Virus record (IMG/VR): IMGVR_UViG_2667527591_000022
From: a virus
Taxonomy: Monodnaviria > Loebvirae > Hofneiviricota > Faserviricetes > Tubulavirales
DNA length: 10,187 nt
Strand: one strand, 5' to 3'
Positions 5,415 to 7,562 of the stretch are shown piece after piece. The translations under genes were made by a program, and so were the position numbers. The notes under the pieces are model-generated. The model was not told the origin of the DNA. It did not search any database and worked only from the letters and a program-made list of their open reading frames with translations. Every line of letters begins with the position of its first letter. Within the stretch, counting starts at the first letter, position 1.

Positions 5415-7415
5415 TCAGGGACAGTTATTGTCACAAGTCCAAGGGTCGGCTTCGCCGCCCCCACCCGCCGCGCGGGAGCGCGTCGTGCGGTGTCGTGAAG
5501 CCGACGAAATAAACACAGATTCATAGCTGCTGCCGCTTCTGACTTCCTCTGCGCGGATTTTTTCTGCGGGGGTCATACGGCGGACAACACAGCCCATAAA
5601 ACGGGTTATGACCGGAACAGGGCCAAACATGAAACCGGAAATCACCGGTGCGCAGGGTTCACCGTAACGGTTAAAACGGGGTTTACCACCTTCCTGCGGC
5701 TGAACGTAAAAAGGACGAAGCAGACGTTCAGAACAGAAGAAACCGCCGTTCAGCAGGATATAGGTCCGGAAATCGCCTGCATCACAGGCCATGCGGATGG
5801 CCTCCAGTTCGGCGACCTGCTGCGGCGTGAACTGCTGCATATTGATATGATGTGCTTCAAGCGGTGAACGAAAAGTACGCATCTGGCGGTAAGCCGTGAC
5901 GGACGGAACGCCAAAGAACTGGAACAGGCGAAGGCGCGTTGCTTTCTGCCAGCAGGCGGCACGGCTGACGGCATCACAGAATGAACGGGCAGAATAACGG
6001 TCATTCAGGGCGGTAATACCATCCGCACTGACATCACCCGCCATTTTGGTGATGTACTTCACGATGTAACGGAAACCATCACCCTTTTCAGGGTCAATAG
6101 CCTCAATACGAATACGGTGCTCTTTCGCCCCCTTTTCATCCGGCTCATCGCGCATGGCCTCTTCACGGAAAATGGCCAGCACCGTTGCGCTCTCATGGGG
6201 ATTGCAGTAAATCAGGAAATTCCAGTGCGTTGTACCGTCAGCATGAGGCTCGACCGTGCGCAGACCGGGTATCTGAATACCGGCTTTATCCAGTCTGCGG
6301 CAGACCCGACGCCAGACGGTATTCAGCCAGGCGTGCGAATCCTTAACGGTCGGGCAACCTGCTTCCCACCATTTTTTATTCGGACGAGAATGCCATTTTC
6401 CGGCAACCTTAAAACTGGTCGTCGGGTGAAAACGTGACGGCGTGGTGAGCACGATGAAGTAACCGGACAGCCCCATATCTTCGGACAGTTCACAGACGGC
6501 CTTTCCACGAACGCAGAGTTCAGCAATCCGGTTTTTCGGATTCGAAACAGAGGCGTTATGCGCATCTTCCAGCGTACAGACCAGCTCATTAAACGCATCA
6601 AAGACACCGGAGGACCGGAGATACTTTTTCACGCGTTTACTGCGGACAGCAAACAGGTCACGATGCCAGTCAGAAATATAAGGCGCGTTGCGGTTCAGTA
6701 TGCCGAGCATGCGACAGACCTCATTAACCCGCTGGTCACGGACAACCCGCAGGAAACGGGTGACAAAAGCCAAATCAGTCAGACGCTTAAGCAATCCCTC
6801 ATCGCCGTAACGCTCATGATAAGTGGCATAAACGGGTGCGAAATCAAAGCCGGAGATGGCCCGAAAATAGGCCATCACATTGAGAAGGTGATGCTCTGGT
6901 ACATCACTATAAATGGCCCGGGAAACAAGGCAGTCACGAACAACCGAATCAGCCACCTCAGCAATCTGCTCATCAGTGCAGAAAAGCGAGAATTCATAAG
7001 GGTCTCCGTCCTGATTGAAGAAAGCAAAACGGTGCGCGGACTCAAGCGCCATCAGCGCATTTTTCACACCGAGCTGGTAAACCAGACGGCAGAAAGCATG
7101 CGCCACGGTGAACGAAAACGAGCCAAACTGTGATACCAGTCCGGCAGCCCTGCCCCTGTCAGCGAGAGATAAATCCGTGCAGTTAATTCCGTAAATCACA
7201 CGGTCAACCTGCGTGTTACGTGGCAATGCGAGCTGTGAAGATAAGGTCCCGACCTCATCACGATACTGGCGGGAAAGCGTGGCAAGGTTGCGGGTGGCAA
7301 CATCGCGCTCAGTCCGAAAATGCTCGCGTTCGGGCAGCGTCAGGCAGGGACGACCAAGGGCAACGGATGCCGCGTCGATGGCGTTATACGCTGTAAGGAT
7401 GGCTGATTCAGTCAC
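5415..7415 (-). CDS. Rolling-circle replication initiator, phiX174 gpA / P2 gpA-like (two-tyrosine HUH type)
   Basis: Long ORF with motif RYIVKYITK (Y-x-x-K-Y, as in phiX174 A protein YVAKYVNK). The track's start at 7514 is a TTG inside the operator repeats; an in-frame GTG at 7415 preceded by GGGGGGA is the more plausible start. Confidence 0.7.
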
Positions 7416-7437
7416 TAATCCCCCCAAATGCTTTACC

Positions 7438-7562
7438 TGCGTGCAATTGTGCAAACTTGCAAAAATAATACACAAAAAAACCAGATGCACAAGTGCAATT
7501 GTGCACAAATGCAATTTTGCTATGTTGTATTAAACTAAGCCAAAAGAACAGGAGAACAAAAA
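7438..7562. promoter_or_regulatory. Divergent promoter/operator region between Rep and the regulator, with direct repeats of GTGCAATTGTGCA
   Basis: gtgcaattgtgcaa at 7441-7454 and gtgcaattgtgcac at 7493-7506 (52 bp apart), plus partial copies tgcaaaaa / tgcaatttt; candidate -35 TTGTGC and -10 TATGTT for the plus-strand regulator; AGGAG Shine-Dalgarno at 7550-7554. Confidence 0.45.

Follow-up and report, generated by a model that had tools for sequence, protein, structure and literature searches.

The stretch of DNA analysed here (hereafter the window) is the 10,187-nt record IMGVR_UViG_2667527591_000022 of IMG/VR, an inovirus genome coded mostly on the - strand according to the list of its open reading frames (ORFs), and the object of this work is its replication initiator gene, rep. 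A frame open at 5415-7514 on the - strand would give 699 amino acids (aa) from TTG 7514, and such a 2-kb frame with a Pfam match of E 9e-49 is far beyond chance. Residues are numbered below on the 666-aa protein starting at GTG 7415, unless the long frame is named. The features of rep and of its upstream region, with the basis of each in brackets, are the following.

5415-7415, - strand: rep, 666-aa rolling-circle replication initiator, predicted GTG start at 7415, TGA stop at 5415-5417 (Pfam, PHROG and NCBI annotation)
5421-5444, - strand: predicted ori(+) nick-site element CCTTGGACTTGTGACAATAACTGT, also encoding PWTCDNNC (match to the P2 nick site)
5443-5461, - strand: GC-rich stem-loop GGG.CGGC gaa GCCG.CCC, abutting the nick element (DNA fold)
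5466-5485: second stem-loop (DNA fold)
5790-5792, - strand: ATG at codon 542, alone among the internal ATGs in having a good Shine-Dalgarno sequence (GGAGG, 9 nt upstream), speculative start of a 125-aa C-terminal fragment (start scan)
6045-6071, - strand: catalytic block R-Y450-I-V-K-Y454-I-T-K457, with two tyrosines one helical turn apart (homologue alignment)
6219-6251, - strand: metal-site block E389-P-H391-A-D393-G-T-T-H397-W-N399, with H-W-N at the 'HUH' position (homologue alignments)
7416-7514, - strand: in-frame 33-codon upstream extension, probably non-coding operator and promoter DNA (stops in homologues, an indel in the relative from E. coli strain UTME-13, module end at 7412)
7419-7425, - strand: Shine-Dalgarno-like GGGGGGA, followed by the 3-nt spacer TTA and by the GTG at 7415-7413 (sequence; comparison with UTME-13)
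7441-7530, - strand: two clusters of 8-nt-spaced TTGCAC/GTGCAC-like repeats in the interval between rep and a divergent regulator, putative operators (repeat families D1, I1, I2, I7 and I11)

The protein matched the Pfam profile PF05840 (Phage_GPA) with 166.7 bits against a cut-off of 31.4, at residues 240-490 of the long frame and over positions 73-316 of the 321 of the profile, and PHROG 91 ('nicking at origin of replication') with an E-value of 1e-128. PF05840 was also present in each of the 93 homologues retrieved, which split into an enterobacterial inovirus clade (E. coli, Salmonella, Providencia, Morganella and Xenorhabdus) at 41-99% identity and a second group, of P2-like 'gpA' proteins and marine relatives, at 23-33%. 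The segment RYIVKYITK corresponds to aa 482-490 of the 699-aa frame and 449-457 of the 666-aa protein, and its Y450, Y454 and K457 (Y-x3-Y-x2-K) were invariant in a wider alignment of 187 homologues anchored by a hidden Markov model. The sequence-only reading had described a two-tyrosine initiator of the GPA type, and both the Pfam and PHROG 91 matches and the invariant tyrosines bear this out; the profile search against the GPA family proposed along with it placed PF05840 far above the gathering score. Phage_CRI and Rep_trans gave no match to rep in the Pfam scan at E-values up to 1, NCBIfam gave none for the protein, and no Pfam domain was found in the N-terminal (1-240) and C-terminal (479-666) parts. 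Purifying selection on rep was evident from the ratio of nonsynonymous to synonymous differences (pN/pS), which was 0.16 against an 88%-identical homologue and 0.11 against a 98.8%-identical one, and a sliding-window scan of synonymous rates along rep revealed no clear internal constrained segment. The gene thus belongs to the Phage_GPA family and is intact and selectively maintained.

An AlphaFold model of the protein (54 sequences) reached a mean predicted local distance difference test score (pLDDT) of 89.2 and a predicted template modelling score (pTM) of 0.86. Its N-terminal region (2-236) is all-helical and is followed by an alpha/beta core (about 249-460) and by a C-terminal domain of mixed type (479-626). 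In the core are the strands RTVEPH (384-390) and THWNFLIY (396-404) and a helix (448-459) that carries both tyrosines. The tail, residues 630-666, is the sole disordered part (pLDDT <50), and it is there that the predicted origin is encoded. The top Foldseek matches were origin-binding domains of adeno-associated virus (AAV) Rep, with a probability of about 0.85 but an E-value of about 0.14 and standing among unrelated helical hits, and a profile search of PDB sequences yielded just spurious designed-repeat proteins. With Foldseek matches this weak, the modelled fold is consistent with a His-hydrophobic-His (HUH) nuclease and does not prove it.

Ff and phiX174 both make an internally initiated product of their initiator gene. 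The phiX174 A* is annotated in the record NC_001422, and a pX-like product of rep had been named as possible in the sequence-only reading. The first in-frame ATG, which the sequence-only reading placed about 150 codons in, is codon 155 of the long frame (7052); it lacks a Shine-Dalgarno sequence, and homologues have K, V, A, I or L in place of its Met. The ATG at 5792 is the better candidate on account of the GGAGG lying 9 nt upstream, but this GGAGG is accounted for by the codons of Leu-Glu-Ala, and conservation of the Met within the clade is only partial. When six clade members were scanned for in-frame starts with a Shine-Dalgarno sequence, none was conserved across the clade. The pX-like product is left without comparative support, and we regard it as unlikely.

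The predicted nick-site element occupies 24 nt within the last 10 codons of rep, and the C-terminal PWTCDNNCP aligns unusually well with P2-like proteins that are otherwise only about 25% identical. Position 29892 of the GenBank record of P2 (AF063097), which falls within gene A, is labelled 'nick site at ori'. The P2 element is CCTCGGAGTCCTGTCAATAACTGT, the DNA around its nick being GCGGCatcGCCGCgCCTCG↓GAGTCCTGTCAATAACTGT (the arrow marks the cut), and positions 5460-5421 of the window read GCGGCgaaGCCGAcCCTTG↓GACTTGTGACAATAACTGT. Both cores are identical at 19 of 24 nt, with a CGGC-nnn-GCCG stem-loop at the same place, and on this match the cut is predicted after CCTTG, at 5440/5439 of the - strand, +/-1 nt.

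The position of the element with respect to the reading frame was compared among relatives. In UTME-13 (1610-1650), aligned with 5415-5450 of the window, the same 24 nt are kept without any change but are read in another frame, giving a different protein C-terminus; this amounts to a natural frameshift experiment showing that it is the DNA, and not the peptide, that is conserved. The element straddles the rep stop codon in a Salmonella relative, is in yet another frame in VFJ, and starts 1 nt past the stop, being non-coding, in phage Dolos and in the CTX-variant RS2. Altogether, about 190 loci have it at the 3' part of a GPA gene or immediately beyond, in any reading frame. Scanning IMG/VR for the exact 20-mer CTTGGACTYGTGWCAATAAC returned at least 120 contigs, and in 112 of the 120 listed a GPA-family ORF was present on the same strand, which contained the element (84 contigs), was straddled by it at its end (3) or ended shortly before it (25, usually with the element within about 23 nt of the ORF end). 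As for the other eight, the element lay within about 310 nt of a contig end in seven and mid-contig, with no GPA ORF detected, in the eighth (L116). An unbiased test was made with 80 loci from one-genome-per-species assemblies, picked by protein similarity alone: at 72 of them the rep strand had its best match, with at most 3 mismatches, from -550 to +200 nt relative to the rep stop. Matches on the opposite strand were at best 5-8 mismatches away.

The DNA around the element also showed signs of conserved structure. The 131-nt origin region folds with a z-score of -3.9, and 62 of the 154 distinct origins had a perfect stem of at least 5 bp directly 5' of the element, where shuffled sequences would give 6.2. 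These stems had 33 different sequences (for instance GGACGGC/GCCGTCC, GGACGAC/GTCGTCC and CGGGGC/GCCCCG), that is, they vary in a compensatory manner. In Vibrio and Photobacterium inoviruses (locus L015 and about 20 similar ones) the hairpin, GGGCgcaGCCC, does not abut the element but lies about 25 nt upstream, and therefore the origin architecture varies within the family.

Further evidence came from a prophage of E. coli, AF34 (NZ_OZ547096, 2569-11087), inserted between ybiB and hcxB, which matches the window at 98.8% over exactly 4966-7412, comprising rep and the 141-aa gene that follows it, and over nothing else. Because this is the only DNA shared with an AF34-type prophage, the cis requirements of the near-identical Rep should lie within 4966-7412. 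As a separate observation, AF34 and the loci L006, L008 and L011 bear a gene for an IS110-family ('RNA-guided') transposase directly upstream of rep, in the place of the regulator and of the dif-like region.

It was also considered that PWTCDNNC could be a protein motif, either a cysteine or metal site or a docking site for a host factor, with the origin placed elsewhere, for example in the intergenic region 7752-8150 as in classical CTXphi, whose ori(+) lies upstream of rstR (PMC4439123). In the 84 listed viral contigs with the element inside the gene the frame is always the same, and the region 8002-8099 is rich in hairpins, which speaks for this explanation. However, the same 20-24 nt are kept in another frame (UTME-13, VFJ), across a stop codon (Salmonella) or outside any coding sequence (Dolos, the CTX variant and the 25 listed viral contigs), the encoded tail is predicted to be disordered, and the mapped nick of P2 falls in the element. 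Moreover, classical RstA is a member of another family, Pfam02486 (PMC4863604), and the AF34-type phage has no sequence in common with 7752-8150. We judge this explanation to be quite unlikely, and rep most likely carries its own ori(+), as far as can be told from sequence comparison. If the origin is confirmed, the existence of a conserved yet disordered C-terminal tail would be explained, because selection would act on the DNA and not on the peptide. A full-text search of the literature for the origin element returned unrelated primer sequences only, and no paper on the element in inoviruses was found.

Regarding the start of the gene, the sequence-only reading had noticed that the ORF at 5415-7514 begins with a TTG (7514) inside operator-like repeats, which the sequence confirmed, and had preferred the GTG at 7415 after GGGGGGA; this preference is backed both by homologue comparison and by the annotation of a 99.8%-identical prophage (strain 100416), in which the NCBI pipeline calls a 2001-nt 'replication endonuclease', equivalent to 666 aa. 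A further in-frame TTG, at 7427 and four codons upstream of the GTG, had been missed. In UTME-13, whose nucleotide identity to the window is 88%, an ATG preceded by GGAGG stands in the column of GTG 7415. Downstream of this column the differences between both sequences are mostly at third codon positions, whereas upstream of it there are a 9-nt insertion and non-periodic changes, and TTG 7427 is replaced by CTG. An in-frame stop is found 7 codons upstream of the start in UTME-13, and 3-9 codons upstream in three other clade members. In the homologue alignment no protein aligned with the 33-residue TTG extension, and in at least eight other E. coli genomes the similarity to the window ends at 7412-7425. 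The ATG and GGAGG of UTME-13, the upstream stops of the homologues and the recombination breakpoint at 7412 indicate that the true start is GTG 7415, giving 666 aa, and that the 699-aa form would be an artefact of the frame staying open across regulatory DNA.

That the real product is instead the 699-aa form initiated at TTG 7514, or a 670-aa form from TTG 7427, seems very improbable. The frame is indeed open from 7514, TTG 7427 has an AGGT 8 nt upstream, and certain homologues begin 2-3 codons upstream of the GTG column, by which the 670-aa form is a minor possibility. Against both forms, the extension is absent from every aligned homologue, four of which have the upstream stops mentioned, its region is a repeat array that is kept as DNA and in which the 9-nt indel of UTME-13 carries a stop, TTG 7427 changes to CTG, and the AF34-type copies lose their similarity at 7412.

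The array at 7441-7530 consists of about seven copies of an 8-nt-period unit, (T/G)TGCA(C/T)nn, in two clusters around the likely rep promoter, and it is almost invariant between the window and the otherwise 88%-identical UTME-13. A simple sigma-70 promoter scan flagged no rep promoter; by eye, TTGTGC-16 nt-TATTAT at about 7465-7492 may be proposed as such. The divergent 62-aa gene and the upstream TTGCAC arrays probably repress rep transcription. Other prophages with the same rep have wholly different upstream regions, which can be compared with the heteroimmune rstR/ig-2 modules of CTXphi.

The metal site of the protein departs from the canonical one. E389 and H397 are invariant, and H391 and D393 nearly so, in the 187 homologues, but 43 of them have N at position 399 and the remaining 144 have H, all 43 N399 proteins being non-His at 392. 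The protein search gave the same partition, with H-W-N in all 37 full-length clade members and H-x-H in the 53 others. P2-like, Vibrio and Shewanella relatives have E-P-H-H-D-G-T-P-H-W-H, and VFJ, Dolos and the RstA-like protein of the CTX variant retain H-x-H. Hence the HUH label given to the protein from its sequence holds in part: the GPA profile match and the other invariant residues stand, while the literal His-hydrophobic-His triplet does not occur, the aligned triplet being H397-W-N399. Because of this, the family assignment rests on the profile match and on those other residues, and H-W-N is best viewed as a variant of the HUH superfamily site rather than as a ground for exclusion. Replacement of the second His by glutamine (HUQ) has been documented in circovirus-type Reps, which are active, and in Replitrons (PMC10288648); no description of an H-U-N variant was found in the literature searched. 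That Asn is fixed across the clade, down to about 40% identity and while purifying selection acts, points to a variant site that works rather than to decay. It is very unlikely that the protein is a decayed, catalytically dead initiator of a passively inherited prophage, since, although the second His is replaced in both HUH and EPHH, H-W-N is fixed in 43 of 43 clade members (40-100% identity; E. coli, Salmonella, Providencia, Morganella, Xenorhabdus), every other catalytic residue is invariant, pN/pS is 0.11-0.16, phage-genome-size contigs and tandem arrays are observed, and an amide in place of the second His (HUQ) is known in those active circovirus-type Reps (PMC10288648).

Taking all these results together, we consider it likely that rep encodes a rolling-circle initiator of the P2 gpA family (Phage_GPA), carried by a dif-associated filamentous prophage of E. 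coli and cutting an origin placed in its own 3' end. Several points weigh against this interpretation. The nick position is transferred from a feature of the P2 GenBank record and holds to +/-1 nt. Most myovirus-type members keep the element in one frame (PWTxxNNC), and a peptide role for PWTxxNNC in these members could still be at play. The argument that the origin is inside the shared module assumes that both phages are functional, and it would lose force if the AF34-type prophage were defective, as it may be. In addition, Asn replaces the second His of HUH, and EPHH has likewise lost its second His, so that catalytic competence is deduced from conservation only, and no biochemistry on rep or on any inovirus initiator of the GPA type was found in the literature.

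According to the mechanism proposed, Rep would bind the replicative form, as double-stranded DNA, at an origin located within roughly the last 60 nt of its own gene and composed of the GC hairpin (5443-5461) and the element CCTTG↓GACTTGTGACAATAACTGT (5421-5444). The coding (+) strand, which is the - strand of the window, would be cut after CCTTG by Tyr450 or Tyr454, with a divalent metal held by H391, H397 and N399, perhaps plus E389 or D393, by analogy with the H-x-D-x(n)-H-x-H three-histidine sites of relaxases. Rep would then remain on the 5' phosphate, and host polymerase and helicase would extend the 3'-OH. After one round, the second tyrosine would cut the regenerated site, the first linkage would be resolved and the displaced (+) strand circularised; such a two-tyrosine scheme of initiation and termination is established for the protein A of phiX174 (PMC5714925). 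Where prophages stand in tandem, a round begun at one origin and ended at the following one could free single strands without excision, and a release of this type has been described for CTXphi (PMC4439123). As to the choice of helicase (Rep or UvrD) and the need for HU, both patterns occur among inoviruses (PMC4439123, PMC4863604).

Among the closest known systems, P2 gpA, and likewise the Rep of 186 and HP1, share with rep PF05840 and the E-P-H-x-D-G-x-x-H-W and Y-x3-Y-x2-K blocks, and in P2 the nick element is also inside the initiator gene, on the coding strand, 19/24 nt identical and with a GC hairpin just 5' of it. However, P2 is a 33.6-kb tailed double-stranded DNA phage, its gpA has 761 aa and about 25-33% identity over 57-69% of the protein, its triplet is H-W-H and not H-W-N, and its origin is 431 nt before the stop and not in the last 10 codons. 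On the inovirus side, fs2 (orf716), VFJ (orf698), Dolos (gp1) and CTX strain VCE232 (the RS2 RstA-like protein) have as first gene a GPA-type initiator of 698-716 aa, followed by a gene for a single-stranded DNA-binding protein, and the same nick element at or just after the stop codon. They differ from rep in their 29-33% identity and in keeping H-x-H (HNH or HHH), and the element is non-coding in Dolos and VCE232. No mapped origin was found in the literature for any of these four, and the Dolos preprint maps none. Since fs2, VFJ and Dolos were already annotated with such large proteins (698-716 aa), the novelty implied for a large GPA-type initiator in an inovirus is reduced. What appears to be unreported in the literature searched is the H-U-N variant of the clade, together with the near-universal gene-embedded origin that would link the initiators of inoviruses and of P2-type phages.

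phiX174 protein A is also a two-tyrosine initiator with the origin inside its own gene, and the phiX174 origin (400-417), CAACTTG↓ATATTAATAAC, has CTTG↓ and AATAAC in common with the element of the window. The spacing between both motifs is 5 nt in phiX174 versus 10 nt here, protein A has 513 aa and A* is made from an internal start; besides, protein A had no significant sequence match to rep in the searches made. The likeness of the origins may reflect either a deep relationship or a coincidence, and it is a lead rather than a demonstrated homology. The Ff gene II protein with pX, RstA of CTXphi and PA0727 of Pf do the same job from the same position of an inovirus genome, and CTXphi also has a repressor-controlled initiator and release from tandem prophages (PMC4439123). 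Nevertheless, Ff pII (about 410 aa), RstA and PA0727 are of different protein families and their origins are intergenic. Classical CTXphi RstA and Pf PA0727 were considered as possible GPA-type proteins and dropped, both being Pfam02486 members (PMC4863604); PA0727 is reported to have a single catalytic tyrosine in a SIYNK module common to the CTXphi and VGJphi initiators (PMC4863604).

Because rep, the origin and the 141-aa gene form one block, they would be a portable replication cassette, judging from the match with AF34; replication modules are exchanged freely among inoviruses (PMC6813254). We lean, by a little over even chances, towards a broader statement: that the whole GPA family, from P2/HP1-type tailed phages to the inoviruses of Vibrio, Shewanella, Xenorhabdus, Salmonella and E. 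coli, uses one near-invariant origin, a GC hairpin plus CTTG↓GACTYGTGWCAATAAC in the 3' part of the initiator gene or against it, as a self-contained cis-acting rep-ori cassette that in E. coli has been swapped at 98.8% identity between an inovirus of the XerCD/dif type and one with an IS110-family RNA-guided recombinase, and that its enterobacterial branch works with a His-His-Asn (H-U-N) metal site.

The neighbouring genes of the window are the following.

1381-2592: Zot/pI-like gene (ORF list)
2609-2968: gene for a small membrane protein (ORF list)
2968-4332: pIII-like gene, Gly/Ser-rich (ORF list)
4384-5008: coat-size ORFs (ORF list)
4959-5384, - strand: 141-aa gene downstream of rep, in the gene V / rstB position (PHROG 30648 match)
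7563-7751, + strand: divergent 62-aa gene in the repressor (rstR-like) position (ORF list; PHROG 2503)
8151-9359: secretin gene (ORF list)

The 141-aa gene, which travels with rep as a single recombination module, belongs to PHROG 30648, of no known function, and gave a sub-threshold Pfam hint of Putative_G5P (E 0.081). The 62-aa gene belongs to PHROG 2503, also of unknown function, and is labelled hypothetical in H1. The 99.8%-identical copy in E. coli strain 100416 (NZ_CM128593) consists of two tandem prophages adjoining hipBA, and a related rep gene is present in 40 of 5,426 complete E. coli genomes. In a curated phage collection, megablast of 5300-7800 found no match and a sensitive blastn of 1381-9359 found just two short matches in the secretin gene; with no useful match there, the phage is not among the deposited isolates of that collection.

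Several further repeats were observed. In the region 8002-8099 a perfect 14-nt hairpin (8029-8042 / 8054-8067) is flanked by two sites in inverted orientation that resemble E. coli dif, AGTGCGCACAATGACGTTATGTATAAAA and, as its reverse complement, CATTATGCGCACTGA; the region looks like a folded single-strand attP for XerCD of the CTXphi or Ypfphi type. A link to CUS-1/Ypfphi was tried, but sequence relatedness was not shown and no Yersinia locus was among the best 80 genome hits; the lifestyle is the same, in that these phages integrate at dif, occur as tandem copies and have an rstR-like gene (PMC4266046). A 339-bp tandem unit extends over 42-1367 (3.9 copies, 98% identity), with about two more copies at the right end (9373-10000); this array, between the secretin and zot genes, has a GC content of about 0.59, above that of the rest of the phage, and an Rfam scan of the window, array included, gave no match. 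Finally, tandem repeats of 39/78 nt and 30 nt at 3464-3715 encode the Gly/Ser-rich linker of the pIII-like protein, and their copy number probably varies among strains, the H1 homologue being 9 nt shorter.

The protein type was already known, and in this sense the finding is largely ordinary and does not overturn current understanding. It settles the gene model at 666 aa from GTG 7415 and, for an uncharacterised group of filamentous prophages, dif-sited and often in tandem, of E. coli, Salmonella and their relatives, it provides an origin and a nick position that can be tested. If true, the H-U-N site would be a natural variant for studying the tolerance of the metal site in HUH-type nickases, and, if the embedded origin is confirmed, rep, the origin and the small gene downstream would together make up a 2.4-kb cassette, compact and portable, for single-strand replication.

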